In this document: piece after piece, positions 33,986 to 54,436 of the stretch
How the letters are laid out: every line of letters begins with the position of its first letter
How positions within the stretch are numbered: the stretch's first letter is position 1
NCBI GenBank assembly: GCA_023484515.1
Contig: JAMDAY010000028.1
Coordinates: 2,544 to 66,543 of the forward strand
Source of the DNA: Patescibacteria group bacterium
GTDB lineage: Bacteria; Patescibacteriota; Doudnabacteria; UBA920
Reading direction: 5' to 3'
Length of the DNA stretch: 64,000 nucleotides
Made by a program: the position numbers and the translations under genes
Notes under the pieces: model-generated
The model's database searches: none
Told to the model about the DNA's origin: nothing
What the model saw: the letters and a program-made list of their open reading frames with translations, nothing else

Positions 33986-33998
33986 TAACCAGCTTAAT

Positions 33999-34652: not shown

Positions 34653-34655
34653 AAT

Positions 34656-34677
34656 CCCCAGAGGCCGGCCTCTGGGG
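34656..34677. terminator. perfect palindrome ccccagaggcc/ggcctctgggg between convergent genes
   Basis: 11-bp arms with no loop spacer. Lies between the RAYT-1 stop and the ABC permease stop. Confidence 0.5.
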
Positions 34678-34687
34678 AAGATGGACG

Positions 34688-35431
34688 TTATTCTTTTAGT
34701 TTGAATACTTTAACCGTTATCAGCAGCAGCGCTGCCAGCCAAATGCCTAAGATCGCCAGGTCAAAGGCGATTTTTTTTAAGTCAAACGCGGACAAGTAGG
34801 CGGTGCGCAGGCCCTCGGCCAAATAAGTAATGGGCAAAATTTTGGCAATTTTTTGCAAGGCCTCCGGCAGCACGCTTAGCGGATAAAACACGCTGCTTAA
34901 AAAAGTCAGGGGCAGGCCCACGGCCGAGGTGATGGGCGCGGCCGAATCGTAGCTGTTGGCATAATTGGCTATGAGCAGGCCAACTAGCAGGAAAATTGCC
35001 CCACCGGCCACAATTAGCAGGAACGAGGAAATAATATTGCCGGCAAATTGGGCGCGGAACGCCAAAACTCCCAGCAAGGTTAGAATGACCGCCTGCATTA
35101 CCACTATTACCAGGCGCGCGCAAACCAGGCTGACTACCAGTTGCCATTGCTTGAGCGGCGTGGCCAGCAAACGCTTGGTAACGCCGCGCGCCTTTAAGTC
35201 CACCATCCAATAGGCCAGGCTGTATATACCTCCCTGCATAATGGTCATGGCAATAATTCCGGGCAGGACAAAACTGGAGTAAACGGTCTGGGAATTTATA
35301 ATCTTGCCGATGGGAATAATCGACAGCGCGGTATAAATAAAAGCCGGCATCAGCACCGTCCAGTAAAAACCCTCCTTTTCGCGGTAGAACATTTTAAAAT
35401 TGGCGAGGAATAGTTGGTAGAAGCTGGACAT
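34688..35431 (-). CDS. ABC-2 type transporter permease
   Basis: Six hydrophobic segments. Adjacent to the ABC ATPase. Confidence 0.7.
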   Translation of the reverse strand: MSSFYQLFLANFKMFYREKEGFYWTVLMPAFIYTALSIIPIGKIINSQTVYSSFVLPGIIAMTIMQGGIYSLAYWMVDLKARGVTKRLLATPLKQWQLVVSLVCARLVIVVMQAVILTLLGVLAFRAQFAGNIISSFLLIVAGGAIFLLVGLLIANYANSYDSAAPITSAVGLPLTFLSSVFYPLSVLPEALQKIAKILPITYLAEGLRTAYLSAFDLKKIAFDLAILGIWLAALLLITVKVFKLKE

Positions 35432-35610
35432 ACGATTTTAGGGTTTTTCTAAAATTAAAAACCTGTAAATTATTCTAATTTTTAATTGACCTAATTATTT
35501 TAAACAATATCCAATTCCTAATTCCCAATATCCAACTACTGCAGTTCATTGGGAATTGGATATTGGGTATTGGAAATTATTTAGGGTACTTAGGAATTAG
35601 GTTAATTTTG

Positions 35611-36606
35611 TCACTCTTCCCCATACTCTTTCCCCGTCAGTTCCAAATACACGTCTTCCAAGGTGGCGGTTTTCACCATGAAGCCGTAAAAGGCGATACC
35701 TTCCTTTTTTAGCAAATTTACAATGGCGGAAATTTTGTCCAAACTGGAAATCTCCAAAATGACCTTAGGATAACTGGCGTGGATTTTTTTAACTTCCGGC
35801 AGGGCAGTGAATAATTCGGGAGTAATTCGCCCCTCCGTGAAAAAGGAAACCTGGGTCGTTTCGGAAAGCCGGTCAATAAGTTTTTTGGGCTGGTCAATTT
35901 CCAAAATTTTTCCCTGGTCCATAATGGCCACATGGTGGCAAAGGAATTCCGCCTCTTCCATGTAATGGGTAGTCAGGACAATGGTAATGCCTTCGGCATT
36001 GATTTTTTTAATAAGCCCCCAAAGGCTCCGGCGTGCGGCCGGGTCCAAACCAGTGGTTGGTTCGTCTAAAAACAAAATTTCCGGCCGGTTAACCAGGGAA
36101 ACGGCAATGGCAAAGCGCTGTTTTTGTCCGCCGGAAAGGCTGGCGAATTCTTCACTGGCCTTGTCTTCCAGGTTCACCACCTGTAACGGGCTTGTGCTAT
36201 TTGTCCCTGCGCCTTTGGGCTGCTTATAAAAAGAGGAAAACAAATCCAACAACTCTTTTAGCGACAAGTGGTGCAAATACTGGCTGGATTGCAATTGCAC
36301 GCCTATGCGCTTTTTAACTTCTTCTGCGTCTGCAATGTTATCCAGTCCCAATATAGCTACTTTCCCGCTGGTTTGCCGCTTTAAGCCTTCAATAATTTCC
36401 AGGGTGGTGGTCTTTCCTGCGCCATTGGGACCGAGCAATCCGAAAATTTCCCCTTTTTCCACGGAAAAAGAAATGCCGTTAACCGCGGTTAAAAATTTGT
36501 TCCCTTGCCGGCCCAGCTTTTTGGCAAGGGGATAAGTTTTTGTTAAATTTTGGATCTCAATTACTTTTTCCATATTTTCCTGCTTTATTATATCACATTG
36601 TGTCAA
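35611..36606 (-). CDS. ABC transporter ATP-binding protein
   Basis: GLLGPNGAGKTTT Walker A, LSGGQKQRFAIAVSL signature and LFLDEPTTGLD Walker B are present. Confidence 0.85.
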   Translation of the reverse strand: MTQCDIIKQENMEKVIEIQNLTKTYPLAKKLGRQGNKFLTAVNGISFSVEKGEIFGLLGPNGAGKTTTLEIIEGLKRQTSGKVAILGLDNIADAEEVKKRIGVQLQSSQYLHHLSLKELLDLFSSFYKQPKGAGTNSTSPLQVVNLEDKASEEFASLSGGQKQRFAIAVSLVNRPEILFLDEPTTGLDPAARRSLWGLIKKINAEGITIVLTTHYMEEAEFLCHHVAIMDQGKILEIDQPKKLIDRLSETTQVSFFTEGRITPELFTALPEVKKIHASYPKVILEISSLDKISAIVNLLKKEGIAFYGFMVKTATLEDVYLELTGKEYGEE

Positions 36607-36713
36607 CTGTTTTTTTATGCTATCATATAAGTGTACATTTCCATTGCGGAGGGTAAAAATGGCATTCCTAAGATCCCGCCGGCTTTAGGCCGGGGAATTG
36701 GGGAAGCTGTCAC

Positions 36714-36741
36714 TTGACAAATTAGTCTTGACAGGTATAAT
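36714..36741 (+). promoter_or_regulatory. consensus sigma70 promoter TTGACA-16-TATAAT upstream of rpoB
   Basis: Read directly from the sequence. Confidence 0.5.
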
Positions 36742-36792
36742 GCCAATATGCACAATTTCATAAGATTTTAAGCCTTAACGCCACGGCCTTTT

Positions 36793-39700
36793 TTGCATAT
36801 GCAAAAAAGGAAATGTTTTATGCACTCCAAATCTAAAACTCCTCAAGAACAAGCCATTTTTAAAGCGCAGGCGGACAAAACTTTGCCCAGGAAATTTTTT
36901 AACCACGGGCACGAAACTTCCCTGTTGCCGAATTTAATAGAAGTCCAGTTGGATTCTTACCGCTGGTTTTTGGAAAAAGGCTTAAAGGAACTGCTCGGGG
37001 AAATTAATCCCATCCGCGACTTTACCGGCAAAAATTTGGAACTTTTTTTCGGCGATTATTTTTTGGACAAGCCCAAATACGACGAATTCACTTCCCGCGA
37101 ACGCAATACCACTTTTGAAGCCCCGCTGTATGTAAGCGCGAAATTGGCAAACAAGGTTAACGGCAAGACCAAGACCCAGGACGTTTACTTCGGCGACTTT
37201 CCCTTAATGACCCCCCGCGGCACGTTTATCATCAACGGCGTGGAGCGCGTGGTGGTAAACCAGCTCATTAAGTCTCCCGGCGTGTTCTTTACCGCAGAAG
37301 GCCTGCGCGGCAAGAATTTTTACGGGGCCAAGATTATCCCCAACCGCGGCGCCTGGCTGGAGCTGGATACGGACGCAGCCGGCGTCATTGGCGTCAAAAT
37401 TGACCGCAAGCGCAGAATACCCATTACCGCTTTGCTGCGCGTTTTCGGCTTGTCTTCCAATGAAGAAATTTTGCAGGCGTTCCGCGACGTTGACACCGAT
37501 CCCGATACCAAATATATCCAGGCCACTTTGGAAAAGGACGCAAGCACTAACAGCGACGAAGGCTATAAGGAAGTTTACAAAAGGATCCGCCCGGGCGACC
37601 TGGCCACGGTGGACAACGCCAAGTCCTTAATTTCCGGGATGTTCTTTAATGCCGAGCGCTATGACTTGTCCGAAGTCGGTCGCTACAAGTTTAACCAGCG
37701 GCTGAATGTGGAAGAAAACAAAGGGCAAATTTTAACTAAAGAAGATCTAGTAACCGTAATCCGCGAAATTATCCGCCTGAACAATACCCAGCAGCCGGCC
37801 GACGACATTGACCATTTGGCCAACCGCCGCGTGCGCGCGGTGGGGGAATTAATCCAGACCCGCTTCCGCGTAGGGCTGGCCCGCATGGCCAGAATCGCCA
37901 AAGACCGCATGAGCCTGGCCGACCTGGACACCGTGACCCCGGCCCAGCTTATCCATGTGCGCCCGATTGTCGCCACCATGCAGGAATTTTTCTCTTCTTC
38001 CCAATTGTCCCAGTTTATGGACCAGACCAACCCCTTGGCCGAACTGGAGCACAAGCGCAGGCTTTCCGCCATGGGTCCGGGCGGGCTTTCCCGCGAGCGG
38101 GCCGGTTTTGAAGTCCGCGACGTGCACCACAGCCACTACGGCCGGTTGTGCCCCATTACCACTCCCGAAGGGCCGAACATCGGGCTGGTGGCCCATTTGG
38201 CCACCTACGCCCGCGTGAACGATTTCGGGTTCATAGAAACCCCTTACCGGGTGGTCAAAAAATTTGCCAAGAACGACGGCAAGGACGCGGCAGGCGAAAT
38301 TGCCTTGTTTGACGTTAAGTCCCAGGAAGGCGGAATTTTAGCCGCCGCCGGCCAGGCGGTGAGCGAAAAGCAGGCCAAGGACTTGGCCAAGCACGGGGAG
38401 ATTTTGGAAATCCGCATCAAGCCCCGCCTGACGGACAAGGTTGTCTATTTGGACGCTTACGAAGAAGAAAAATTGACCATTGGCCAGGCGAACATTGAGG
38501 TGGACGGGAAAGGGTATTTTACCGCGCCCCGCGCTTCGGTCCGCGTGCATACCGTGCCGAGCATTGCTTCCACCGACGACATTGACTGCATAGACGTTTC
38601 GCCCAAGCAGATTATTTCCATAACTACTTCATTAATTCCGTTTTTGGAACACGATGACGCTAACCGCGCCCTTATGGGCAGCAACATGCAACGCCAGGCC
38701 GTGTCCTGCATCCGTCCCGAAGCCCCCTTGGTGGGCACGGGTATGGAAAGCAAGGCCGCCCACGACAGCGGCACCGTGGTTTTGGCCGAAGAAGACGGGG
38801 AAGTGCTTTCCGTTACCGGCGACAAAATTATAGTGGCAGGGGACAAAGGCAAGAAAAACGAATATCAGTTGCTTAAATTCTTGCGCACCAATTCGGCCAC
38901 GGCCATTAACCAGATTGCCCGCGTCACCAAAGGCCAAAAGGTGAAAAAAGGCGACCTGCTGGCAGACGGCGCTTCCACGGAAAACGGGGAGCTGGCCTTG
39001 GGTCAGAACGTGCTGGTGGCCTTTATGTCCTGGGAAGGCGGCAACTACGAAGACGCGGTGCTGCTTTCGGAGCGCGTAGTGCAGCAGGACCGTTATTCCT
39101 CCATTCATATTGACGACTTTAAGATAGACGTGCGCGACACCAAGCTCGGTCCGGAACAGATTACCCGCGACATCCCCAATGTCGGGGAAGAAAAATTGAA
39201 GGATTTGGACGAGAACGGCATTATCCGCATTGGCGCGCAAGTAAAAGCAGGGGATATTTTGGTGGGTAAGATTACCCCCAAAGGCGAAACTGACCTGACT
39301 GCGGAAGAAAAATTGCTGCGCGTCATTTTCGGGGAAAAATCCCGCGACGTAAAAGATACCTCCTTAACTTTGCCGCACGGCGAATACGGCAAGGTTGTGA
39401 ATATTCGCCAGTTTACCCGTGAAGCCGGGGACAAATTGCCTTCCGGCGTGGTGCGCTCCATTCAGGTGTCCGTGGCCGTGCTCCGCAAGGTCCAGGTCGG
39501 CGACAAAATGGCCGGCCGCCATGGCAACAAGGGCGTTATTTCCAAAATTATTCCGGTGGAAGACTTGCCTTTCATGGAAGACGGCCGCGCCGTGGACGTG
39601 GTGCTGAACCCCTTGGGCGTGGTGTCCCGTATGAACTTGGGACAGATTTTGGAGACGCACTTGGGCATGGCCGCTTATCGTCTTGGCTACAAGGCGGCTA

Positions 39701-40317
39701 CTCCGGTCCTGGAAGGGGTAGTAGAGCGGCAAATTAAGGAAGAACTGGCCAAGTCCGGCATTCCGGAAGACGGCAAAGTGGTATTGTATGACGGCAAGAC
39801 CGGCGAGCGATTTGACGAAAAAGTCACGGTCGGCGTGATGTATTTCTTAAAGCTCCATCACTTGGTAGACGACAAGATGCACGCCCGGTCCACGGGTCCC
39901 TATTCGCTAATTACCCAGCAGCCGTTGGGCGGCAAGGCCCAGTTTGGCGGCCAGCGTTTCGGAGAAATGGAAGTGTGGGCCCTGGAAGGATACGGCGCCG
40001 CCCATACTTTGCAGGAAATGCTTACTATAAAATCGGACGACGTAGTCGGAAGGTCCAAGACTTACGAAGCTATTGTGAAGGGCGAGCCCATTAAGAAGCC
40101 GAACATTCCGGAAAGCTTCCGCGTGCTGGTCAAGGAATTGCAAAGCTTGTGCATGGACGTGGAACTGCTTGGCGCGGACGGGGCAATAATGTCCGCCTCG
40201 GAAGAGAGCGAAGTGGTGGTTCCCGGCCCAATACAGCAGCCCGTAACCGTGCCCGAAGTTTCGCTGTTTGAGGAAGAAAAGCCTAAGGAAAAGAAAAGCA
40301 AGAAAAAGGCGAAGTAA
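36793..40317 (+). CDS. rpoB: DNA-directed RNA polymerase subunit beta
   Basis: 1174 aa with conserved beta-subunit blocks (GDKMAGRHGNKGV, NMQRQAVS and others). Confidence 0.95.
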   Translation: MHMQKRKCFMHSKSKTPQEQAIFKAQADKTLPRKFFNHGHETSLLPNLIEVQLDSYRWFLEKGLKELLGEINPIRDFTGKNLELFFGDYFLDKPKYDEFTSRERNTTFEAPLYVSAKLANKVNGKTKTQDVYFGDFPLMTPRGTFIINGVERVVVNQLIKSPGVFFTAEGLRGKNFYGAKIIPNRGAWLELDTDAAGVIGVKIDRKRRIPITALLRVFGLSSNEEILQAFRDVDTDPDTKYIQATLEKDASTNSDEGYKEVYKRIRPGDLATVDNAKSLISGMFFNAERYDLSEVGRYKFNQRLNVEENKGQILTKEDLVTVIREIIRLNNTQQPADDIDHLANRRVRAVGELIQTRFRVGLARMARIAKDRMSLADLDTVTPAQLIHVRPIVATMQEFFSSSQLSQFMDQTNPLAELEHKRRLSAMGPGGLSRERAGFEVRDVHHSHYGRLCPITTPEGPNIGLVAHLATYARVNDFGFIETPYRVVKKFAKNDGKDAAGEIALFDVKSQEGGILAAAGQAVSEKQAKDLAKHGEILEIRIKPRLTDKVVYLDAYEEEKLTIGQANIEVDGKGYFTAPRASVRVHTVPSIASTDDIDCIDVSPKQIISITTSLIPFLEHDDANRALMGSNMQRQAVSCIRPEAPLVGTGMESKAAHDSGTVVLAEEDGEVLSVTGDKIIVAGDKGKKNEYQLLKFLRTNSATAINQIARVTKGQKVKKGDLLADGASTENGELALGQNVLVAFMSWEGGNYEDAVLLSERVVQQDRYSSIHIDDFKIDVRDTKLGPEQITRDIPNVGEEKLKDLDENGIIRIGAQVKAGDILVGKITPKGETDLTAEEKLLRVIFGEKSRDVKDTSLTLPHGEYGKVVNIRQFTREAGDKLPSGVVRSIQVSVAVLRKVQVGDKMAGRHGNKGVISKIIPVEDLPFMEDGRAVDVVLNPLGVVSRMNLGQILETHLGMAAYRLGYKAATPVLEGVVERQIKEELAKSGIPEDGKVVLYDGKTGERFDEKVTVGVMYFLKLHHLVDDKMHARSTGPYSLITQQPLGGKAQFGGQRFGEMEVWALEGYGAAHTLQEMLTIKSDDVVGRSKTYEAIVKGEPIKKPNIPESFRVLVKELQSLCMDVELLGADGAIMSASEESEVVVPGPIQQPVTVPEVSLFEEEKPKEKKSKKKAK

Positions 40318-40347
40318 CAATAACTAATAACTATAACAATATATAGA

Positions 40348-40405
40348 TGTAGGGGCGGGCATTGCCCGCCCGCCACAGAACGGGCGGCCGATGGCCGCCC
40401 CTACA
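40348..40405. repeat. REP-like GTAG-headed palindrome in the rpoB-rpoC spacer
   Basis: tgtaggggcgggcattgcccgcccgccacagaacgggcggccgatggccgcccctaca. Confidence 0.8.
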
Positions 40406-40424
40406 GGAACCTAAAAAAATTTGT

Positions 40425-40662
40425 GTCATTGCGAGGTCAGGGCTTTATCTGGCCGAAGCAATCTTTTCCTTATGATATAGTAAGTAAAATAATTTTTTAG
40501 CCTTCAATAGCGACAGCCAAATACGAGTGCATTGTAGTTGCCTGATTTATCAGGCTCAAAGGGCCCCATAAATGGGGCAACTACGCAAGGGGCGGCTAAA
40601 AATTTATTTGATTCACTATAGTTTGCTTCGCCCCTCGGATGCACTCGGGGCTCGCAATGACA
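40425..40662. mobile_element. MITE-like element with TGTCATTGCGAG terminal inverted repeats (copy 2, 238 bp)
   Basis: TIRs at 40425-40436 and 40651-40662. The internal blocks match copy 1. It also contains gtagttgcctgatttatcaggctc, which has a related sequence at 21590. Confidence 0.65.
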
Positions 40663-40857
40663 TAAAAAAAGCGCCGCGTCCGTCCTTGCCCGAAGGCAAA
40701 TCGGATTTTCAATAATGTTGAAATTTAAAAAATTTAAGAATTGGGCATTTATTGGAAATTAGAAATTGGGAATTTGAAATTTTTAACTACAAATTATCAA
40801 ATAGCCACTAAAGTGGCAAAGCCATCAAGTATTAATTTTTAAGAAGAACGTTAATTT

Positions 40858-43800
40858 ATGTTCACCCAAACCGAAGACTTCAAGGGAGTACGCTTGAAAC
40901 TGGCCAGCCCGGATACCATTTTGCAATGGTCCCACGGCGAAGTCACCAAGCCGGAAACCATCAACTACCGCACCCAGCGTCCGGAAAAGGACGGGCTTTT
41001 CGACGAGAAAATTTTCGGGCCCATTAAGGACTGGGAATGCTACTGCGGCAAATACAAAAGGATCCGCTACAAAGGGATAGTGTGCGACAAGTGCGGCGTG
41101 GAAGTCACCAAGTCCTCGGTGCGGCGCGAGCGCATGGGGCACATTAAGCTGGCCGTGCCCGTGGCCCATATTTGGTTTTTGCGCGGCGTGCCTTCGCGCC
41201 TCGGCTTAATATTGGATTTGGGCGTGCAGGAACTGGAAAAAGTGGTATACTTTGCCGCTTACATTATTACTAACGTGGACGAAGAAGTCCGCATGTCCAC
41301 CCTGGATCAGATTGAACGGGAATTCAAGGCCAAGAAAAAGAACATAGAAGAAAAATATGAAACCTTGATCGGAAAAGCGCGCAGCGGCATCCAGCAGCAC
41401 GGCGGCAGCAAGGACCAGGACGTGGTGCAGGCCGAAATAGACGCGGAAGTTACCAGGCTTAAAGACGCCTGGGCCAAGGAAGTGGACGGCCTGGAATCTA
41501 TCCGCGACCAGGCGCGCAGCGAACTAAAATCCATCAAAAAATACCAGATTATCAGCGAACTGCAATATCGCGACCTGTCCTTAAAATACGGCCCCGTGTT
41601 TTCCGCAGGCATTGGCGCGGAAGCGTTAAAGGGCTTATTGGAAGAGACTAATCTGGAGAATTTGGCGCAGGAACTGCAGACCGAACTGCCCAATTTGGAG
41701 GGCCAGGCTAACCGTAAAGTTTTAAAGCGGCTCAAACTGGTCAAGTCCTTAATTTTGTCGGGCCTAAGGCCGGAATGGATGCTGGTGACCATGCTGCCGG
41801 TTATTCCGCCGGACCTGCGGCCCATGGTGCAGTTGGACGGCGGCCGGTTTGCCGCGTCCGACTTGAATGACTTATACCGCCGCGTCATTAACCGCAATAA
41901 CCGTTTAAAGAAACTTTTGGAAATTAAGGCGCCGGAAGTTATAACCCGCAACGAAAAGCGCATGTTGCAGGAAGCCGTGGACGCGCTTATAGACAATTCC
42001 ATCCGCCACGGCAAGGAAGTTACAGCTTCCACAGGGCAAAAGCGCAAGCTGCGCTCTTTGGCCGACATGCTTAAAGGCAAGCAGGGGCGGTTCCGCCAAA
42101 ACTTACTTGGTAAGCGCGTGGACTACTCCGGCCGCAGCGTTATTGTGGTCGGCCCGCACTTGAAATTGCACCAGTGCGGCCTGCCGAAATTTATGGCCCT
42201 GGAATTGTTTAAGCCGTTTGTCATTTCCAAGCTGATTGCCCGCGAATATGCGCACAACGTGCGCAGCGCCAACCGCTTAATAGAGCAGGGGCGCACCGAA
42301 GTTTACGACATCCTGGAAGAAGTGACCAGCGACCATTATGTGCTGCTTAACCGCGCGCCGACTTTGCATCGTTTGGGTTTTCAGGCATTCCAGCCGGTAT
42401 TGATAGAAGGTAAGGCCATCCAGTTGCACCCTATGGTGTGTGCCGCGTTCAACGCGGATTTTGACGGCGACCAGATGGCCGTGCACGTGCCTTTGACCGA
42501 ACTGGCGCAAAAGGAAGCCAAGGAAATTATGGTTTCCGCGCATAACCTGCTCAAACCGGCTTCCGGCGACCCGGTGATGACCCCGGACAAGGACGTGGTA
42601 GTCGGCTGCTACTATATAACCAAGACCCGCGAAGGCTTAAAGGGCGAAGGTAAATATTTTTCCAATCCGCAGGAAGCCATTTTGGCTTACAATAATCATT
42701 TCGTGCACATCCAGGCAAAAATCAAAGTAAGGATGCCTGCGGAAGACGGCGCCGCAGAGGAGATGGTAGAAACGTCCGTGGGCCGCCTTATCTTTAACAA
42801 AATTATCCCCAAGGAATTGGGTTTTAAGAACGACGCCTTTGACAAGAAAAAATTGCAGGCTTTGGTCCGCGAAGCGCACCGCCAGTTGGGCAACGAGCGC
42901 ACTGCGGAATTGATTGACGAAATTAAGCGCACCGGCTTTACCTATATGAAACAGTCGGGATTGTCCTGGGGCATGGACGATTTGCGCGTGCCGCAAAACA
43001 AGTATGAACTGTTCGGCACGGCCGATACGGAAGTGGAATCCACTTACCAGCAGTACCGCGAAGGCTTGCTGACCGAGGAAGAGCGCAAGAACCGCGTGGT
43101 GGAAATTTGGGCTGACACCAGCGAACGCATTGCCAAGAGCGTAACCCAGACCGTGGACGAGCACAGCACGGTTAATTACATGGTCAGCAGCGGAGCCAGG
43201 GGGTCGTTTTCCCAAATTACGCAGATGTCAGGCATGAAAGGACTGGTGGTCAACCCGGCCGGCGACGTTATTGAATTGCCGGTCCGCGGCAGCTTTAAGG
43301 AAGGCCTGGCCGTATTGGAATATTTTATTTCCACGCACGGCTCGCGGAAAGGCATGTCGGACACGGCTTTAAGGACCGCGGACGCCGGCTACCTGACCAG
43401 GAGGCTGGTGGACGTGGCGCAGGATATTGTGATTAACGCGGAAGACTGCGGCACTGAAGAATATGACTTAATAACTTTGGCTGACAGCCAGAGAATGGGC
43501 AAGCCTTTGGATCGCCGCTTGTTCGGCCGCGTAGTCGCCGAAGACCTCAAGGACAAGGAAGGCAATATTATAGTGGCCAAAAACCAGGGCATTGACGATT
43601 TCCTGGCCAAACAAATTGTGGAACTGGGCATAACCGAAGTCAAGTGCCGCAGCGTGCTCAAGTGCAAGCTGACCCGCGGCATTTGCCGCCTGTGTTACGG
43701 GTTTGACCTGGGCTTTAACAAGATGGTCCAGCCCGGCGCGGCCGCCGGCATTGTGGCCGCCCAGGCCATTGGCGAACCGGGCACGCAGCTGACCATGAGA

Positions 43801-44757
43801 ACTTTCCATACCGGCGGTTCGGCCAGCGTAAAAGACATTACCCAAGGTTTGCCTCGCGTGGAAGAACTGTTTGAAGCGCGTGAACCAAAAGGGGAAGCCA
43901 CGGTTTCGGAAATTGACGGGCAGGCATATATTAGCAAGCCTAACAACAAGGAATACATAGTGCGCGTGCAGGGCGCGGACGTGGAAACCGACGTTTACGA
44001 ATTAGGGGGCGCCCATGCCGCAGTCAAGGACGGCAGCAAGGTGTCCGCTGGCGAAACTTTGTATCTGGACGAGGCAGGCAAGCCTGTCCGGTCCAAGGAC
44101 GCGGGCTTTGTGCGCGTGGAAAAAGGGCGGATTGCGGTAGTGCACGAGAGCGACGACGTTAAGGAATACGTTATTCCGGCTTCGTTCAGCCTTTTAATCA
44201 AGGACGGCGACCTGGTAACCAAAGGACAGCAGTTGACCGAAGGCAACTTAAATCCCAACTTAATTATGAAATTGCGCGGCGTGGAAGAAGCGCAAAAATA
44301 CATTACCAGGGAAGTCCAGGACATTTACGTGTCCCAGGGACAGAACATCCACGACAAGCACATTGAAGTGATTGTCCGGCAGATGTTCTCCAAGATGCGC
44401 ATTGCCGATTCCGGGGACAGTGAATTCGTGGTGGGGGAGATAGTGGACAAATCCAAGCTGAATTATATTAACGAAGGCCTGCTGAAAAACGGGCAGCGCC
44501 CGGCCCAGGCCGAACAGTTGCTGATGGGAATTACCAAAGTATCCCTTAATACCGATTCGTTTCTGGCAGCCGCTTCTTTCCAGGAAACTACTCGCGTTTT
44601 GATTGAAGCCGCGGTGACCGGCAAGACCGACTACTTGCGCGGGCTTAAGGAAAACGTGATTATTGGCAAGCTCATTCCGGCCGGCACCGGCTTTAGCAAA
44701 GAAATCGCCAAGGAAAACCTGCAGGCCGAAGAGGCGGTATCGCTGGCTTCGGAGTAG
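40858..44757 (+). CDS. rpoC: DNA-directed RNA polymerase subunit beta' (with a lineage-specific insertion after the zinc-binding region)
   Basis: N-terminal Cys-ligand spacing C..C..(x12)..C..C within ...[28 protein letters not shown]. The catalytic loop reads [15 protein letters not shown]. Confidence 0.95.
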
Positions 44758-44856
44758 CATCCAAACGGATTTACGCGAATGCAAAAACGAATAATTACGA
44801 ATACGTGAATATACGGACGGATACCATCCGCTCCTGCAAATTGATTAATTTAGAAA

Positions 44857-44884
44857 GGGACGGCCAAACGCCGCCCCTTTTTCG
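44857..44884 (+). terminator. GC-rich hairpin gggacggc/gccgcccc followed by T5, downstream of rpoC
   Basis: Seven of 8 bp pair in the stem, followed by a T-run. Confidence 0.45.
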
Positions 44885-45001
44885 CGCTTGGATAAATTTT
44901 AAAAGGTTGGTTGCGGACCAGTTTTTTGAATTCGGTCCCTAATTTTGTGTTTGACTTGGAACCTGCAATCGTCTAATATTAATATGAAAAGACGGAGACG
45001 C

Positions 45002-45226
45002 ATGAAAACATTATTTTTAGAATCAGCGGTCTGGAAAGAGGGCAAATTTTACGTTGCCCAGTGTTTAAACGTGGATGTTTCCAGTTTTGGCAAAACCAAA
45101 AAAGAAGCTTTAAAAAACTTGCAGGAAGCCTTGGAACTTTATTTTGAGGACGAAAGCATAAAGCCTTCAAAAATAGCTTCCGTGGAAAAACCGGAACTGA
45201 CCAGGCTGCCCATAGCTTATGCCTAA
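45002..45226 (+). CDS. hicB: HicB-family antitoxin
   Basis: KFYVAQCLNVDVSSFGKTKKEALKNLQEALELYFE matches the HicB/UPF0150 pattern. A TTGACT-17-TAATAT promoter lies at 44950-44978. Confidence 0.6.
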   Translation: MKTLFLESAVWKEGKFYVAQCLNVDVSSFGKTKKEALKNLQEALELYFEDESIKPSKIASVEKPELTRLPIAYA

Positions 45227-45431
45227 ATTATATTCTTCAAGCCAAATTATCAAAGTCCTGGAAAGCCGGGGCTTTGTTTTTGTTTCCCAAAAAGGCAGCC
45301 ATGTCAAATATCGCAAATATGGTAATCCTACCTTGACCGTAATAGTTACGGCGAATAAAAGACAGATTCCTTTAGGAACTTTTAAGTCTATTTTAAGGCA
45401 GTCCGGGTTAATGGAAGAAGATTTTAGTTGA
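45219..45431 (+). CDS. hicA: HicA-family mRNA interferase toxin
   Basis: IKVLESRGFVFVSQKGSHVKYRK matches the HicA/YcfA pattern. Overlaps hicB by 8 nt. Confidence 0.65.
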   Translation: MPKLYSSSQIIKVLESRGFVFVSQKGSHVKYRKYGNPTLTVIVTANKRQIPLGTFKSILRQSGLMEEDFS

Positions 45432-45483
45432 TGTATTTTGGGTATCACTATAGTTTGGAGGCAAAATCTGTTACAATAAAACC

Positions 45484-46713
45484 ATGAATAAACTCCAAAT
45501 TTCCCAACGCGCGCAAAAGATAATTGCTTCTCCCATAAGGAAGTTTTTGCCATTGATGCTGGAAGCGGAAAAACGGGGGATTAAAATATATAAGATCAAC
45601 GTGGGCGACCCGGATTTATTGCCACCGCCGGAATTTTACCGGGAAATAAAACGGCATTTGGCCGGCAATTTGGGTTATGCTCCTTCTCCCGGCATTGCCA
45701 GCCATGTGGCAGCCTGGCAGGAATATTACAGTCAAATGGGCGTAAATTTGCAGCCGGGAAATATTATCCCCACGCAGGGCGGCGCAGAAGCTATTTTACT
45801 GGCCATGCAGGCCGTGGCAGACCAGGGCGACGAGGTGGTAGTGTTTGAGCCTTTGTATGTCAGTTACCGGTCCTTTGCCGCCATGGCCGGCATTAAGCTG
45901 GTGCCCGTAACGTTGTCTATTGCCAACAACTTTAGCCTGCCTTCCGTTTCAGTTTTGAAAAATAAAATCACTAGCAGAACAAAGGCAATTGTAATTGTGA
46001 ATCCTGACAACCCCACAGGCAAGCTATGGAGCAAAAAAGAACTGGACCAGATAATCCAGGTTGCCAAAAAACATAACCTCTATATTATTTCCGACGAAAC
46101 TTACCGCGAAATTAGGTTTGACGGCAAAAAATTTTCCTGTCTTTTGACGCGCAAGGATGCCGCGGAAAATATAATATTATGCGACAGCGTGTCTAAGCGT
46201 TTTTCCATGCCCGGCGCGCGCATTGGCTGCGTGGCCAGTTTTAACAAAGAGATAATGTCAAGCGTGCTCAAGTTTGCCCAGGCCAGGCTTTCCGCCGGAA
46301 CTTTGGAACAGTTGGCCCTAGTTCCGCTGATAAAAAATAGCCGCTCCTATACCCGGAAAGTCCAAAAAGAATATTTGCGGCGGCGCAACGCGGTGGCAGC
46401 GGGCTTAAAAAATATTCCCGGCGCCGTATTCCGGCCGGCCCAGGGCGCATTTTACCAGGCCGTAAAACTGCCGGTTAAGTCCGCTGAGGATTTCGTAAAA
46501 TTTATGATCAGCGAATTCCAATACAAAGGCGCTACCGTCATGGTCACGCCCATGAAAGATTTCTACCTGACGCTGGGTTTAGGCGAAAATGAAGTCCGCA
46601 TAGCTTATGTGCTGAATGTTAAAGATTTGTCCGCAGCCATGGATGTTTTGCACAGAGGACTAATAGCATATAAAACGAGTCCCTTGAAGAGACCCTTCAA
46701 GGGGACCACATGA
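45484..46713 (+). CDS. class I/II PLP-dependent aminotransferase
   Basis: SKRFSMPGARIG (PLP-lysine region). About 409 aa. The last codons run into the REP hairpin at 46681-46704. Confidence 0.75.
   Translation: MNKLQISQRAQKIIASPIRKFLPLMLEAEKRGIKIYKINVGDPDLLPPPEFYREIKRHLAGNLGYAPSPGIASHVAAWQEYYSQMGVNLQPGNIIPTQGGAEAILLAMQAVADQGDEVVVFEPLYVSYRSFAAMAGIKLVPVTLSIANNFSLPSVSVLKNKITSRTKAIVIVNPDNPTGKLWSKKELDQIIQVAKKHNLYIISDETYREIRFDGKKFSCLLTRKDAAENIILCDSVSKRFSMPGARIGCVASFNKEIMSSVLKFAQARLSAGTLEQLALVPLIKNSRSYTRKVQKEYLRRRNAVAAGLKNIPGAVFRPAQGAFYQAVKLPVKSAEDFVKFMISEFQYKGATVMVTPMKDFYLTLGLGENEVRIAYVLNVKDLSAAMDVLHRGLIAYKTSPLKRPFKGTT
46681..46704. repeat. REP hairpin cccttgaagagacccttcaagggg (upstream flank of RAYT-2, within the aminotransferase 3' end)
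   Basis: Arms cccttgaag / cttcaaggg. Confidence 0.8.
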
Positions 46714-47390
46714 AATATAGAGATTACAAGGTGTTTGCACCGGGAGGATATTATCATGTATATAATCGCGGTGTAGCTAAAACTGATATCTTTTTAGACG
46801 ATGACGACCGCAAATTTTTTCTATTTCGCCTTAAAGAATATTTGTTTCCCTTGAAGGGTCTCTTCAAGGGAAAAAGGCAGAATTTACCTGGAGGGGCGGC
46901 AATTGTGGCCGAAACCCATACCCCTTATAAAAGAAAAATGTTGCCTCCAGACAGTTTTTCCTTGCTTTGTTATTGCCTTATGCCTAACCACTTCCATTTT
47001 CTTATTAGGCAGGAAGGTGTGTTGGAGGTCCGGAAGCTGTTGGCTAAAGTTTGCACCAGTTATTCTAAATTTTTTAACCAAAAATATGGAAGAGTTGGAA
47101 GCTTATTTCAGGATGCCTTTAAAGCCATTTCTGTAGAAAATGATCCGCAACTCCTTTGGGTTTCATCATACATCCATAATAATCCAAAAACAGCTAACCT
47201 TGTCGATAACCTAACTGATTATCCTTGGAGCAGCTATTTGGATTATATCGGCAAGCGGCAGGGAACTTTGTGCGACAAGGAATTTATTTTAAAGATGATC
47301 GGGGGCGCGGAAAAGTATAAAAGATTTGCGGAAGACAGCTTTGCGAAAATAAAGGAAAGGAAAGATTGTGAAGGATTATTTTTAGATTAA
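46710..47390 (+). CDS. REP-associated tyrosine transposase (RAYT), copy 2
   Basis: YHVYNRG and YCLMPNHFHFLI motifs. The 3' ~100 bp are about 95% identical in DNA to RAYT-1. An internal REP copy at 46848-46870 encodes LFPLKGLFKGK. Confidence 0.8.
   Translation: MKYRDYKVFAPGGYYHVYNRGVAKTDIFLDDDDRKFFLFRLKEYLFPLKGLFKGKRQNLPGGAAIVAETHTPYKRKMLPPDSFSLLCYCLMPNHFHFLIRQEGVLEVRKLLAKVCTSYSKFFNQKYGRVGSLFQDAFKAISVENDPQLLWVSSYIHNNPKTANLVDNLTDYPWSSYLDYIGKRQGTLCDKEFILKMIGGAEKYKRFAEDSFAKIKERKDCEGLFLD
46848..46870. repeat. REP hairpin cccttgaagggtctcttcaaggg inside the RAYT-2 ORF
   Basis: Same arms as the flanking copies. Confidence 0.8.
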
Positions 47391-47392
47391 AT

Positions 47393-47417
47393 CCCCTTGA
47401 AGGGTCTCTTCAAGGGG
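47393..47417. repeat. REP hairpin ccccttgaagggtctcttcaagggg (downstream flank of RAYT-2, inverted loop relative to the upstream copy)
   Basis: Loop gggtctct versus agagaccc upstream. Confidence 0.8.
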
Positions 47418-47423
47418 ATATTT

Positions 47424-47681
47424 TTAAGCGCTTTTTGACTTTTGGACAACCATCCAGCCGCCAAGGGCCGGCGGGGAAATTTCCAGCTTGTCTTTTTGCA
47501 GATAATATTTGGACGCGGATTTTCCATCAATCAGAACGGCGTATACATTCCCATTTTTGTCCTTTTTGTAAACTTTCCATTCGGCGCCTCCGCTGCCGTC
47601 GTTAAGGCAGGTGATTATATCGCCTTCCGAAAATTCATTGCCGTTTGGAATCTCCCTAAATTCATTTTTATTGTTTCGCAT
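47424..47681 (-). CDS. hypothetical small protein
   Basis: 85-aa ORF between RAYT-2 and valS. No recognisable motif. Confidence 0.3.
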   Translation of the reverse strand: MRNNKNEFREIPNGNEFSEGDIITCLNDGSGGAEWKVYKKDKNGNVYAVLIDGKSASKYYLQKDKLEISPPALGGWMVVQKSKSA

Positions 47682-47725
47682 AAAATTATGTTTTAAGCCG
47701 TTAAGGCTATGTTAATTAATTTTGA

Positions 47726-50182
47726 TTATTTATGCGGTTGCGGCCACTTGGAAACCATCAGCATGGGGTCGTTGCCTAGTAATTTTGCCTCATGCATTAT
47801 TGACCACAGCTCTTCTGTAATAAACGGCATAAAGGGGTGCAGGAGCTTTATGGAATTAATAAGCACGTGAAGCAGGAGTTTTTGGGTGCTTTCTTTCAAG
47901 TTTTCGTCGGCCAGTTGTTTTTTGGAAGCTTCAATATAAATGTCCGCGAATTCGTGCCAGACAAACTGGTAAATTTCCTGCGCGGCTTCGTGCAGGCGGA
48001 AGTTTTCGAGATGGTTAGTGGCCGAAATTTTTAGCGCTTCCAGCTTGCCGTTGATTTCCTTGTCCGCATCGGTTGTAGGGGAGGGTCTTGACCCTCCCTC
48101 CTTGGAGGACAGGTCTAGACCTGTCCCTACAGCCGCGCTATCTATATTTGCCAGCACGAACCTTGCAATATTCCACAGTTTGTTGCCAAAGTGCTTCATG
48201 CCTTTTATTTTGTCTTCGGACAAGGGAATGTCGTTGCCAGCCGCAGTAGAGAAGACAAGCGCAAACCGAAGCGCGTCCGTTCCATAGGTGTCAATTACGC
48301 CCAAAGGGTCTATTACGTTGCCTTTGCTTTTGCTCATCTTCTGCCGGTCCTTGTCGCGCACCAGGCCGTGCAAAAAGACACGTTCAAAAGGCGGTTTGCC
48401 AACGCGGTAATAGGAAAACATAATCATTCGCGCGACCCAGAAGAACAAAATATCCCAGGCGGTTTCCATGACTTGGGTCGGATAGTAGTTTTCCAAAGTC
48501 TTGGTGCCATGCTTGGCGTCGTTGGCCATCATAGTGGCATACGGCCATTGGCCGGATGAAAACCAGGTATCGAAAGTATCAGGATCCTGATACCAACCTA
48601 TTTCTTGTGGAGGTTTCTCCCCAATAAACCTTTCGGCTTCTCGTTGTGGTCTTGGAACCTTGTTTTTTTCTATCCAGGAGTCTTCCAAAATTCCTTTTTG
48701 CTTTAGTAAATCAACATAACCTATATACATTTGTATAATTCCGTCTTGGAAAGAAGCCCATGATATATTTTTATCTTTCCACCTACTTTCTTGTTTCAAG
48801 TCCCAGGAAAATTTATTGAATTCTTTTTCATCGGTCAAGCCTAACTTTTTACAGATGACCTCGCTTTTGAAATGAAATGCTTCTTTATCAGAACCCACCT
48901 CAGTTTTATACCAGACCGGGATCGGAATGCCCCACCAGATTTGGCGGGAAATTGGCCAGTCGCGGATGTTTTCCATCCAATGCCGGAAGATTTTTTCAAA
49001 GCGCTCGGTTACAATTTTAACCTCGCCTTTGTCCAAAGCCTGCAAAGCCATATCGCGCAAAGAAGGCCTGTCGTCCTTCAGCGGTTCGGTCATTTTCACG
49101 AACCACTGCGGAATTATTTGCGGCTCTATGAGCGTGCCGCATTTATAGCAAAGCTGGACATTGTGCTTGTAGTTTTCGTCTATATGGTCAACTAAACTTT
49201 TAGCCTTGAGCTTTTCAATAATTTTCGGCCGCGCTTCCAGAATTTTCATTCCCGCAAATTCGCCGGCAATGGGAAGCAACCGTCCGCGATGGTCAATAAT
49301 TTGCTCTTTGTCCAGCTTGAGGCGTTCGGCCATTTCAAAGTCAACCGGGTCATGCCAGGGAGTTATGGTCATTACGCCGGTACCGAATTCCATATCCACC
49401 GCTTTGTCCTTAATTACCGTTGCGGTTATGGGGCCGTTTATCCATTCCAATTCTATTTTTTGCCCGTTTTTGTATTGCCCGTATCTTTTGTCGTCAGGAT
49501 GCATAACCACGTATTTGTCACCGAATTTGGTTTCTGGACGAGAAGTTGAGATAATGAACGGACCATATTTAAGATAGTAGAAAGGTTCTTGCCGTTCTTC
49601 GTATTTAGTTTCCAAATCGGACAGTGCGGTCTGGTGTTTGGGACACCAGTTGCCCAGGCGGTCGCCGCGGTAAATAAGGCCGTCTTTATACATCATTTCA
49701 AACGTTCGGTAAACAACTTTGACAATTTCCGGGTCAAGCGTAAAAATATTGCGGCTCCAGTCGCACGAGGCTCCAAGGCGGCGTATGCTTTCTTCGGTAA
49801 TATGCTTGTTGGCCTGCACGTAATCCCAGCATTCTTTGTAAAATTCGTCGCGTTGCATCTTAAAGCGCGATTTGCCTTCCTTTTCCAGTTTTTTTTCAAA
49901 CACCACTTGGGTTTCAAACCCGGCATGATCGGTTCCGGGCAGCCATAAAGTTTTTTTACCGCGCATCCGGTTAAAACGGATTAAAATATCCTGGATGGTA
50001 AAACCCAAGGCATGGCCGACGTGCGCCGGCGCGTTGGCGTTGGACGGCGGCATAATAATGGCGTAGGGCTCCCGGTTTTCCGCATCGGGAAGATTGTCAG
50101 GATTAAAATACCCCGACTCCAGCCATTTTTGGTAAATTTTGCCTTCCACTGTCGCGTGGTTGTATGCTTTGTCTAGTTCCAT
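47726..50182 (-). CDS. valS: valine--tRNA ligase, carrying an in-frame REP-like insertion
   Basis: PYAIIMPP...HVGHA (HIGH) and KMSKSKGN (KMSKS) motifs are present. The extra segment SKEGGSRPSPTT is encoded by the palindrome at 48074-48131. Confidence 0.8.
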   Translation of the reverse strand: MELDKAYNHATVEGKIYQKWLESGYFNPDNLPDAENREPYAIIMPPSNANAPAHVGHALGFTIQDILIRFNRMRGKKTLWLPGTDHAGFETQVVFEKKLEKEGKSRFKMQRDEFYKECWDYVQANKHITEESIRRLGASCDWSRNIFTLDPEIVKVVYRTFEMMYKDGLIYRGDRLGNWCPKHQTALSDLETKYEERQEPFYYLKYGPFIISTSRPETKFGDKYVVMHPDDKRYGQYKNGQKIELEWINGPITATVIKDKAVDMEFGTGVMTITPWHDPVDFEMAERLKLDKEQIIDHRGRLLPIAGEFAGMKILEARPKIIEKLKAKSLVDHIDENYKHNVQLCYKCGTLIEPQIIPQWFVKMTEPLKDDRPSLRDMALQALDKGEVKIVTERFEKIFRHWMENIRDWPISRQIWWGIPIPVWYKTEVGSDKEAFHFKSEVICKKLGLTDEKEFNKFSWDLKQESRWKDKNISWASFQDGIIQMYIGYVDLLKQKGILEDSWIEKNKVPRPQREAERFIGEKPPQEIGWYQDPDTFDTWFSSGQWPYATMMANDAKHGTKTLENYYPTQVMETAWDILFFWVARMIMFSYYRVGKPPFERVFLHGLVRDKDRQKMSKSKGNVIDPLGVIDTYGTDALRFALVFSTAAGNDIPLSEDKIKGMKHFGNKLWNIARFVLANIDSAAVGTGLDLSSKEGGSRPSPTTDADKEINGKLEALKISATNHLENFRLHEAAQEIYQFVWHEFADIYIEASKKQLADENLKESTQKLLLHVLINSIKLLHPFMPFITEELWSIMHEAKLLGNDPMLMVSKWPQPHK
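48074..48131. repeat. REP-like GTAG-headed palindrome, in frame inside valS
   Basis: tgtaggggagggtcttgaccctccctccttggaggacaggtctagacctgtccctaca. Confidence 0.8.
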
Positions 50183-50186: not shown

Positions 50187-50275
50187 CGCTGATTTCTCGC
50201 TGATGGTTACGCTGATCTAACGCTGATCAGCGTTAGATCAGCGCTGGTGTTAAAATCAGCGTCCGTTCGGCGGTA
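50187..50275. repeat. seven CGCTGAT/ATCAGCG heptamers, including the perfect palindrome ctaacgctgatcagcgttag, in the valS 5'UTR
   Basis: Read directly from the sequence. Confidence 0.7.
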
Positions 50276-50586: not shown

Positions 50587-51714
50587 TTAAAGCTCCAAGT
50601 TCGGGTCTGCCTTTACAGCCTTGTAGCTTTTTGGTTTATAACCGTTAAACAGCATGAAAGCCGCGGCCATGCCTATTATTTCCGCGTTGTCGCCGGTTAG
50701 GGACAAGGGAGGGGCGAAAAATTTTAAATTGAAGGTTTTAGATTTTAGATTTAAAGATTTTCGGAGCGCAAGGTTTGCCGAAACGCCGCCGGACAGGCTT
50801 ATGGACCTGGCTTTAAATTCATTGGCTGCGCGCAGGGTTTTGGCAGCCAGCACGTCAACCACGGCCTGCTGGAAGGAAGCGCATACATTAGTTTTTAGCT
50901 TATAGCTTTTAGCTGTTGGGGGATTATCGCGTAAATAGTAAAGCACTGCGGTTTTCAGGCCGGCAAACGAAAAGTTGTAATCTTTGGAATTAATCATGGG
51001 CCGCGGGAAATTTATGGCTGCAGGGTTTCCTTTGGCGGCCAATTTGCCAATTTGCGGACCGCCCGGATAAGGGAGGCCTAAAAGTTTTGCCACTTTATCA
51101 AAAGCCTCGCCTGCCGCGTCGTCCACGGTCTGGCCCAGGACTTTGTAATGTTTAATATCTTCCATTAATACTAAAATCGTATGGCCGCCGCTTACGATGA
51201 GGCTGATCATGGGGAAAAAATTAGCTTTTAGCTTATAGCTTTTAGCTGTTAGTCGGCCAAAAGGCGAATAGAGGTGGCCGGACAAATGATTAACCGGAAT
51301 AACAGGTTTGCCCGTAGCCAGCGACAGCGCCTTGGCGAACTCCACGCCTACGATTAGCGAAGGAATAAGGCCAGGACCGGCCGTGACCGCAATATAATCA
51401 ATTTGGCTTAAAACGTCCTCGCCGTTTTTGCAACTCAATTTTTGACGGCCGTCAAAAATTGAGTTGCAGGCGCCGGTTAAAGCTTTTTTTACGACCGGCA
51501 AAATATTTTTCACGTGCGCGCGGGCCGCCGCTTCGGGCACCACGCCGCCCATTTTGCTGTGCAGGCTAATTTGTGATTTTACCACCGAAGACAGGGTTTT
51601 AATCTTGGGGAAGCCCGCTGCAGAGCCTGAATTTTCCAGGCGCAAGACCGCCGCGGCTGTTTCGTCGCAACTGCTTTCTATGGCAAGGATGGTTTTACGG
51701 TTTTGTACGGTCAT
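50587..51714 (-). CDS. tsaD: tRNA N6-adenosine threonylcarbamoyltransferase TsaD, with in-frame lysine-rich repeat insertions
   Basis: ILAIESSCDETAAAV and the HLSGH metal site are present. The repeat ttagcttatagcttttagctgtt occurs twice (50892-50916 and 51220-51244) and encodes TAKSYKLK. Confidence 0.85.
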   Translation of the reverse strand: MTVQNRKTILAIESSCDETAAAVLRLENSGSAAGFPKIKTLSSVVKSQISLHSKMGGVVPEAAARAHVKNILPVVKKALTGACNSIFDGRQKLSCKNGEDVLSQIDYIAVTAGPGLIPSLIVGVEFAKALSLATGKPVIPVNHLSGHLYSPFGRLTAKSYKLKANFFPMISLIVSGGHTILVLMEDIKHYKVLGQTVDDAAGEAFDKVAKLLGLPYPGGPQIGKLAAKGNPAAINFPRPMINSKDYNFSFAGLKTAVLYYLRDNPPTAKSYKLKTNVCASFQQAVVDVLAAKTLRAANEFKARSISLSGGVSANLALRKSLNLKSKTFNLKFFAPPLSLTGDNAEIIGMAAAFMLFNGYKPKSYKAVKADPNLEL

Positions 51715-51730
51715 AAAATGCCTTTAACGT

Positions 51731-54219: not shown

Positions 54220-54436
54220 GGGGTCTTTCCAATCTTTATCCCACATAAATTTTCCCTATGCCGGAAGGCGCGCCTTCCGGCATAGGGAAGCATTGCTGTC
54301 TTGCGCAAATTCCGAGGCGTAACTCCCCACAACTCCCCAAAGCCTTGATAAATTAAGGGAAATATGTTAAACTGACAAAGCTGTTGAGGTTGCGGAAATT
54401 TTTAAATTTTAAATTTTCAATCTTTAAATTTATCTT

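Follow-up and report, generated by a model that had tools for sequence, protein, structure and literature searches.

Cognate hairpins around and within two TnpA-REP-like genes of a Patescibacteria genome

Why should a gene of the transposase family carry, within its own open reading frame (ORF), a further copy of the hairpin that lies on either side of it? The question is raised by RAYT-2, one of two diverged paralogues resembling REP-associated tyrosine transposases (RAYTs; REP, repetitive extragenic palindrome) in the DNA analyzed here, a 64-kb stretch of a Patescibacteria metagenome-assembled genome (MAG). This whole stretch is called the window, and the hairpin counts given for this genome cover its 64 kb. 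It seems fairly probable that the paralogues represent two diverged REPtron-like units, of a kind widespread in Patescibacteria, in which a hairpin-specific single-stranded DNA (ssDNA) nuclease or transferase has its hairpin copied or homogenized mainly in cis.

The two genes and their palindromes

The RAYT-2 unit is made up of the following features (window positions; palindromes are listed without a strand).

46710 to 47390, plus strand: RAYT-2, a Y1 HUH (TnpA-REP-like) gene encoding 226 amino acids (aa)
46681 to 46703, no strand: upstream cognate hairpin of RAYT-2, 9-bp stem, loop AGACC
46845 to 46873, no strand: internal in-frame hairpin of RAYT-2, 12-bp stem, core 46848 to 46870, loop GGTCT
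47391 to 47419, no strand: downstream cognate hairpin of RAYT-2, 12-13-bp stem, core 47394 to 47416, loop GGTCT

The window contains exactly three perfect copies of the palindrome CCCTTGAAG-N5-CTTCAAGGG, all of them around or inside RAYT-2, and a search allowing up to two mismatches gives three RAYT-2 hairpin matches as against none in 100 shuffles. The upstream copy lies within the last codons of an aminotransferase gene, with 6 nt between its end and the RAYT-2 ATG, while the downstream copy begins 1 nt past the stop codon and is followed by ATTTTT. The copy between them is in frame, residues 47-54 being PLKGLFKG within the wider reading L-F-P-L-K-G-L-F-K-G-K. Folded as ssDNA, the hairpins reach -9, -12.1 and -12.9 kcal/mol (z = -3.7 to -6.6). 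A reading made beforehand from the sequence only had described all three, with the outer loops in opposite orientation; they are confirmed at 46681, 46848 (within the ORF, encoding LFPLKGLFKGK) and 47394, and the outer loops, AGACC upstream and GGTCT downstream, are reverse complements of each other.

No GT[AG]G foot was found at any RAYT-2 hairpin, the flanks being GAGT/GACC, GTTT/AAAA and AAAT/ATAT. In a terminator consensus scan, the downstream hairpin is terminator-like on the plus strand, the upstream one is so on the minus strand only, and the internal one is listed on neither strand. Rfam gave no family at E <= 0.1 for window positions 33000-48500, and no tnpB-sized ORF adjoins either paralogue. 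A metagenome-wide scan for CCCTTGAAG-N5-CTTCAAGGG returned at least 120 unrelated single matches and was uninformative; among the matches listed, none has a GGTCT or AGACC loop or a RAYT gene.

The second gene has palindromes of a different sequence.

33999 to 34652, plus strand: RAYT-1, a 217-aa paralogue starting at MNNRDYK, as in the family
33948 to 33986, no strand: upstream palindrome of RAYT-1, 19-bp stem, a doublet of CAATGG-GCA-CCATTG and its inverse
34151 to 34189, no strand: internal in-frame palindrome of RAYT-1, 19-bp stem, at the site called A below, encoding TVPIGCQWAPL

Both RAYT-1 palindromes contain the core GGTGCCCATTG and consist of a small hairpin and its inverse, with the two units in reverse order in the internal one. 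RAYT-1 has these upstream and internal copies and no cognate hairpin downstream. A hairpin at 34655-34678, past the end of the gene, is unrelated to them and looks like the terminator of a convergent ABC-2 permease gene. Neither hairpin family was found elsewhere in the 64-kb window. In the protein alignment, the internal hairpins of RAYT-1 and RAYT-2 fall in the same variable loop, as had been proposed. The paralogues had also been put at about 50% identity, but at the aa level they are 58% identical overall and 52% outside a tract of shared DNA (described below).

The longest RAYT-1 ORF starts at 33951, within the upstream palindrome, and so acquires the false N-terminal extension MGTIVLHNGAHC (window 33951-33998). 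The same false extension, as MGTVVQHNGAHC and MGTVVRHNGAHC, is present in the database proteins P0241 and P0243 (loci L211 and L212). The NCBI annotation of RAYT-1 (P0081, 193 aa) begins at an internal Met and cuts off strand beta1.

Both proteins match Pfam Y1_Tnp (PF01797; E = 5e-9 and 5e-11, with 36.7 and 43.4 bits against a cut-off of 23). Against NF047646, the NCBIfam equivalog model for REP-associated tyrosine transposases, they score 48.0 and 56.2 bits and do not reach the cut-off of 80, and the match is restricted to the C-terminal two thirds of the model. The H-F-H motif (residues 94-96 of RAYT-2) and the Tyr of YIHNNP (the catalytic Tyr154) are invariant in homologue alignments. This Tyr motif, YIHNNP in both window proteins and YIH[NQLR]NP family-wide, is of the class 2 form Y-x3-NP and not Y-x3-Q. 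The family has FQ rather than WQ and a C-terminal tail of about 70 aa with WSSY; a Pfam scan found no helix-turn-helix (HTH) domain in the window RAYT proteins.

An AlphaFold model of RAYT-2 (predicted local distance difference test score, pLDDT, 83.5) gives the predicted order beta1, alphaA (31-45), a loop of about 37 residues, beta2, beta3 (HUH), alphaC, beta4 and alphaD (Tyr154). The loop between alphaA and beta2 has pLDDT below 50 at residues 53-72 and ranges from about 8 to 35 aa among homologues; the internal hairpin residues 47-54 stand at its start. When the model was compared with the PDB by Foldseek, the top match was 4ER8, the complex of E. coli TnpA-REP with a REP hairpin (E = 5e-7, TM 0.73), followed by the TnpA proteins of IS608, ISDra2 and IS200. 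The top 31 PDB matches are all such transposases or TnpA-REP except for one Thg1 chain. As modeled, the protein has an HUH/Tyr fold closest to E. coli TnpA-REP, to which similarity by sequence alone is marginal (E = 0.005).

Hairpins across the homologue family

The two genes have more than 2400 homologues, nearly all in Patescibacteria. A sample of 80 loci from GTDB representative genomes yielded 74 intact genes, including the two window genes and again mostly from Patescibacteria; the window genome is not among the representatives, and the best locus there is 56% identical. A shared hairpin was defined by at least 13 identical nt, in practice a hairpin. A 10-mer criterion for sharing between ORF and flank was dropped, as it gave 39% false positives in non-cognate controls versus 1.4% with 13-mers.

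Cognate sequence lies on both sides of the gene in 54 of the 74 loci (20-80 nt before the start and just past the stop), as against 0.7% of non-cognate pairs, and across the 74 loci the hairpin sequence is specific to each gene lineage. A further copy is found inside the ORF in 25 of the 74 genes, compared with 1.4% in non-cognate controls. RAYT-1, whose internal palindrome has only 11 nt in common with its flank, was left out of this count. The internal sites number 28. Fourteen of them, including that of RAYT-2, are at site A, the loop before the HUH strand, 13 are at site B, within 100 nt after the Tyr codon, and one doubtful case elsewhere is the only one lying between the HuH and Tyr motifs. 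Three genes have both internal sites occupied.

Outside the gene and its surrounding 400 bp on either side, cognate copies are scarce, with 11 in 826 kb of flank, or about one stray copy per 75 kb. Hairpin density is 0.65 per kb inside the gene versus 0.013 per kb in the flank, a difference of about 49-fold (Poisson P ~1e-37), and because of this concentration the hairpins are regarded as low-copy and REP-like. The sequence-only reading had called the arrangement the classic REP-RAYT one. A gene between cognate hairpins is indeed what recurs in 54 of the 74 loci, but the term overstates the likeness, given that the window has no copies elsewhere and no GT[AG]G foot, that the proteins score below the RAYT cut-off and that loop orientation varies in relatives. 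Hairpins at other sites than these had been expected too, their absence having been named beforehand as a ground for rejection; there are none in the 64 kb, and relatives have about one stray per 75 kb.

The stray copies are genuine full hairpins, some of them within giant ORFs. Those at +5488 in L033, +910 in L044 (a doublet) and -4005 in L019, relative to the RAYT start, fall in stop-free stretches of 923, 2514 and 1999 codons, respectively, and may be in-frame insertions in giant genes. Across subfamilies, hairpin tips share ...AAGG(G/T)-N3-5-(A/C)CCTT... (for example in L033, L036, L044, L045, L052, L056, L067, L080 and RAYT-2). Several site-A copies are read in one frame, L-K/Q-G-x-T-F/L-K-G, and the encoded peptide looks like a conserved protein motif. 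In locus L029 (gene 163-825), strong related hairpins occupy both of the internal sites (TTACAAGGGCCGGACCCTTGTAA at +173, CACTGCAAGGGCCAGGCCCTTGCAGTG at +447). The upstream, internal and downstream loops were compared for a consistent orientation that might mark the active strand; their orientation is mixed even among close relatives, and no conclusion on the active strand is therefore drawn. Where a genome has more than one copy of the gene (five other genomes, with two or three copies), the copies are 35-67% identical and never nearly identical.

The closest relatives of each paralogue show how the internal copy behaves over shorter distances. The RAYT-2 relatives L081, L082 and L083 (66-67% aa) have flanking hairpins and an internal one, at the codon position that it has in RAYT-2, with the pattern CCC[CT](T)GAAG...CTTC(A)[GA]GGG. 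For RAYT-2 and L083, internal and flanking stems agree within each genome (CCCTTGAAG in the window versus CCCCGAAG in L083). The internal copy is perfect in RAYT-2, has a 10-nt insertion in the hairpin loop in L083, is a 49-nt doublet in L082 and is decayed in L081. The RAYT-1 relatives L211, L212 and L213 (57-62% aa) follow the same pattern with the CAATGGGCA family; the internal copy of L212 matches its own downstream copy, and that of L213 is lost or decayed. The upstream hairpin of RAYT-1 is 92-97% identical in three genomes, as opposed to 64-72% for coding DNA, which makes the hairpins the DNA under the strongest constraint at these loci. In this hairpin the genomes differ by one compensatory pair and by the base at the center of the loop. 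Comparison of these sequences suggests that the internal hairpin position is either older than these lineages or has been repeatedly re-hit.

The most probable account of how the internal copies came about is the following. Each class-2 Y1 HUH enzyme presumably binds and cuts its lineage-specific hairpin as ssDNA. It would propagate or homogenize that hairpin mainly in cis, and its own gene would therefore be the most exposed target. Copies would survive there only in frame and in loops that tolerate extra residues, and would then either stay flank-like by re-copying or conversion, or decay. Internal copies would, in other words, be tolerated passengers and not required parts, a view favored because they range from perfect to decayed in close relatives and because two thirds of the genes have none.

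Several points weigh against this account. The pairing of enzyme and hairpin on which it depends is itself only presumed. The enrichment of about 49-fold within the gene needs an unusually strong cis bias, which has been demonstrated for no RAYT. In many cases an internal stem equals or exceeds the flanking stems in length, and the internal hairpin keeps the same codon position and frame in orthologues that are only 60-67% identical. In L029, the internal hairpins are kept although no hairpin copy is detectable in either flank. The constant position and frame, the long internal stems and L029 fit selection for function at least as well as they fit a passenger. In addition, the empty-site comparison by which the RAYT-2 unit is recognized as inserted (see below) uses genomes only about 70% identical in the neighboring protein.

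It is accordingly conceivable, if rather unlikely, that the internal hairpin is a maintained working site, bound or cut in its own gene (as ssDNA) or in the mRNA, where it would set the level of its own enzyme or act as a third strand-exchange partner. Such a role would agree with cognate copies being 49-fold denser in the ORF than in the flanks, with the two sharply defined positions and the recurring frame, with internal stems as perfect as the flanking ones and with the L029 hairpins that have no flanking counterparts. It would also agree with the orthologues of both window genes (57-67% aa), in which the position is kept and the sequence tracks the flanks of each genome. However, two thirds of the family have no recognizable internal copy, and decay is seen in close relatives (L081 and L213). 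The location varies by lineage, being before the HUH strand, after the Tyr or, in subclass 2.4 of the TnpA-Y1 proteins, between HuH and Y (PMC6006769), and the internal copy does not keep one orientation with respect to the gene. Both selection and repeated re-copying would, moreover, fit the data here.

If the internal copy were such a maintained site, a transposase-family gene would be its own substrate and would offer a tractable system for the co-evolution of REP hairpin and enzyme; this would also explain how the three copies stay alike while the hairpin changes between lineages. REP movement in vivo has, to our knowledge, not been demonstrated for any RAYT, and both the spread of REPs and the matching of enzyme to REP are unsettled. 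In Patescibacteria there are thousands of enzyme-hairpin pairs, small and diverged, with hardly any hairpins left beyond the gene itself. In this stripped-down form there are two flanking copies, and a third of the genes add one or two more, in frame and at fixed loops. Specificity for the own hairpin, preference for action in cis and homogenization of the three copies could all be tested on such pairs.

The insertion site and the tract shared by the paralogues

Two further genes adjoin the RAYT-2 unit.

45484 to 46713, plus strand: class I/II aminotransferase gene, its C-terminal 9-11 codons derived from the upstream hairpin of RAYT-2
47424 to 47681, minus strand: ORF of 85 aa between RAYT-2 and valS, with no significant family match (DUF2103 below cut-off)

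Judged by gene order, the RAYT-2 unit is an insertion between the aminotransferase gene and valS relative to related genomes, since there the aminotransferase gene is directly followed by valS. In the orthologous loci (70-71% aa identity in the aminotransferase), a convergent valS follows after 54-115 bp, with ordinary terminator hairpins between the two. The orthologous aminotransferases end at residue ~398-400; the window protein continues with the C-terminal tail SPLKRPFKGTT (window 46678-46713), for which the upstream hairpin supplies the codons. The stop codon of the aminotransferase gene and the RAYT-2 ATG overlap (ATGA), an arrangement that suggests co-transcription and translational coupling of the two genes. 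The 85-aa ORF is not present in the orthologous aminotransferase-valS spacers, where relatives have a short spacer or another gene (NAD_binding_1 in L209), and it may belong to the inserted block, although this is uncertain. An empty site was not found within the species, the only same-species contig, L205, carrying the insertion. Because the genomes compared are only about 70% identical, the ends of the inserted block are not placed to the nucleotide.

Upstream neighbors recur to some extent at other RAYT loci as well. A Laminin_G_3 protein (window 33234-33935) is encoded directly upstream of RAYT-1, and two RAYT-2-clade relatives lie directly 3' of giant DUF2341/Laminin_G_3 proteins (L081 1-2851 and L083 1-2904). 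A Peptidase_S8 gene precedes the RAYT-1-clade relatives L212 and L213. These recurring genes may reflect a preferred neighborhood or conserved synteny.

An inserted unit of this kind could be taken for an autonomous IS200-type insertion sequence, with the outer hairpins as its left and right subterminal ends and no separate REP population. The near-confinement of the hairpins to gene ends, the presence of RAYT-2 here and not at the same spot in relatives, and the many homologues on 1-1.5-kb contigs are all in keeping with this idea, but it is considered improbable. The Tyr motif is the Y-x3-NP of class 2 and TnpA-REP, not the Y-x3-Q of IS200, and copies within a genome are 35-67% identical and never close to identical. 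In IS200/IS605 elements such as IS608, both end hairpins are on one strand, whereas the upstream and downstream loops of RAYT-2 are inverted. The closest structure is that of TnpA-REP, and solo stray hairpins occur in relatives.

The paralogues also share a stretch of nearly identical DNA.

47226 to 47334, plus strand: RAYT-2 copy of the tract (putative donor), encoding WSSYLDYIGKRQGTLCDKEFILKMIGGAEKYKRF
34485 to 34593, plus strand: RAYT-1 copy of the tract (putative recipient), 109 nt

The two copies differ by 3 mismatches over 109 nt, or 97% identity versus 57% elsewhere in a codon-aware comparison. The sequence-only reading had described a shared 3' end and attributed it to gene conversion. 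The near-identity of the DNA stands, but it does not extend to the gene end, since the tract stops 53 nt before the stop codon and the remaining 3' ends are diverged. At identical residues, third codon positions agree in 31 of 33 cases within the tract versus 45 of 92 outside it (p = 2e-6). A conserved DNA element was considered as the source and ruled out, because conservation among orthologues from other genomes is no higher within the tract (68-69% nt) than in the rest of the gene (64-66%). In the rest of the gene, the proteins nearest to RAYT-1 are P0241, P0243 and P0244 (62-67% aa). Within the tract, RAYT-1 is only 41-44% aa identical to this clade, its own, as opposed to 65-71% aa to RAYT-2-clade proteins. 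The tract of RAYT-1 therefore points to a patch copied from RAYT-2. These comparisons support ordinary gene conversion as the route by which the 109-nt patch moved in this direction; the two paralogues are on the same strand, at a distance of 12.7 kb. The earlier attribution is thereby supported by third-position identity, orthologue comparison and clade affinity, with the direction added.

An independent Logan assembly (SRR10252151; L205) is identical to window positions 42912-47264 and ends after exactly 30 nt of the exact shared run, as expected of a k=31 graph at a true repeat, and the gene order from aminotransferase to valS across RAYT-2 agrees with that in relatives. A chimeric contig is unlikely. 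More broadly, MAG contigs can be chimeric at repeats and the downstream hairpin has a T-rich tail, but it is highly improbable that the tract is an assembly chimera and the hairpins ordinary terminators unrelated to the gene: the tract copies differ at 3 positions on one contig and each runs into its own distinct 3' end, gene order and the Logan assembly both agree, the 23-nt hairpin also stands before the start codon and inside the ORF, where no terminator role for RAYT-2 is possible, and the sequence of the hairpins follows gene lineage in 54 of 74 loci.

Many homologues are found on contigs of 1-1.5 kb, and short-read contigs end at the shared tract (L205) or in the downstream hairpin (L211); RAYT/hairpin units appear to fragment metagenome assemblies. 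In practical terms, these hairpins add residues to housekeeping proteins such as the aminotransferase, create false N-terminal extensions and break short-read assemblies.

Other palindromes occur in the window. A perfect 40-nt palindrome at 51429-51468 (TGCAACTCAATTTTTGACGGCC joined to GGCCGTCAAAAATTGAGTTGCA) is in frame in tsaD (50587-51723, minus strand; Pfam TsaD E = 2e-82), whose product has 378 aa, with the 264-position profile stretched over 307 residues. This may be another palindrome insertion in a housekeeping gene. Loopless perfect palindromes of 34-38 nt are located in short gaps between ORFs at 50210-50243, 54252-54289 and 62520-62557. These three are unrelated to one another and to the RAYT hairpins, and one of them is just upstream of the valS start.

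Comparison with known systems

The minimal unit of the IS200/IS608 elements, one Y1 gene between two similar hairpins, is similar to that described here. The upstream hairpin of RAYT-2, which spans an AAGGGG 6 nt before the ATG, may also recall the stem that sequesters the ribosome-binding site in IS200. These elements differ in having Y-x3-Q, in being nearly identical and multicopy, and in having same-strand ends, none of which is seen in the window family. REPINs, which are reportedly inverted REP doublets (Bertels and Rainey 2011), offer another parallel. The RAYT-1 palindromes, the internal copy of L082 and the stray copy of L044 likewise each combine a small hairpin with its inverse in a doublet that folds as one long hairpin. 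Unlike REPINs, doublets of the window type have no spacer between the units and no large doublet population.

The E. coli REPtron (TnpA-REP, YafM, 4ER8) is the best structural match and shares inverted hairpins that bracket a low-copy gene, with a hairpin family for each paralogue. Its REPs, however, are extragenic, number in the hundreds and have a GTAG guide, whereas the 64 kb here have none apart from those at the two loci, and relatives have about one per 75 kb.

Within the TnpA-Y1 proteins, which have been divided into 12 subclasses (Quentin, Siguier, Chandler and Fichant 2018, BMC Genomics 19:475, PMC6006769), two subclasses come into question. Class 2 of that scheme (TnpA-REP/RAYT) suits the window genes in the Y-x3-NP motif, in the few and weakly similar gene copies per genome (58% identity between the two in the window) and in the palindromes of its own family that flank each gene, which RAYT-2 has on both sides and RAYT-1 on the upstream side only. 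Subclass 2.1 (TnpA-Y1/TIRYT, RAYT group 1 of Bertels) resembles the window family in its NH[YF]H, FQ and Y[IV]H-NP motifs, its 'SS' tail, its size of about 220-240 aa and its one or two diverged copies per genome; all four published motifs are present, by comparison with the motif table only. By that table, the motifs of the window family (NHFH, FQ, YIH-NP and the WSSY tail) appear closer to subclass 2.1 than to subclass 2.4. Subclass 2.1 is, however, reported without nearby REP-like structures and with HTH-type C-terminal domains, in contrast to the clear cognate hairpins found here. For RAYT groups 1 and 4, only low-abundance flanking repeats have been described (Bertels et al. 2017, PMC5581495).

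Subclass 2.4 (Bertels RAYT group 4) is the nearest precedent for the internal copies. Its "unique feature" is in-frame REPs within the tnpA-REP gene, generally between HuH and Tyr, which were read as peripheral-loop insertions (PMC6006769). Like the window family, it combines a class-2 Y1 HUH gene with cognate flanking palindromes and in-frame internal copies in a variable peripheral loop, and its NH[IFV]H and YIxNNP motifs fit the window proteins. Its WQ, its tail-less end and its insertions between HuH and Tyr do not. The window family has FQ and a tail of about 70 aa with the WSSY 'SS' motif, and 27 of the 28 internal sites precede the HuH strand or closely follow the Tyr. The REPs of subclass 2.4 have a GT[AG]G foot that the window hairpins lack, and its hosts are Cyanobacteria and Bacteroidetes rather than Patescibacteria. 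A literature search on RAYTs in Patescibacteria found nothing relevant. A hairpin inside the ORF is not in itself a new kind of observation, because the in-frame REPs of subclass 2.4 have already been reported (PMC6006769); what differs from that subclass is the use of other internal loops, the foot-less hairpins nearly confined to the gene and the Patescibacteria hosts.

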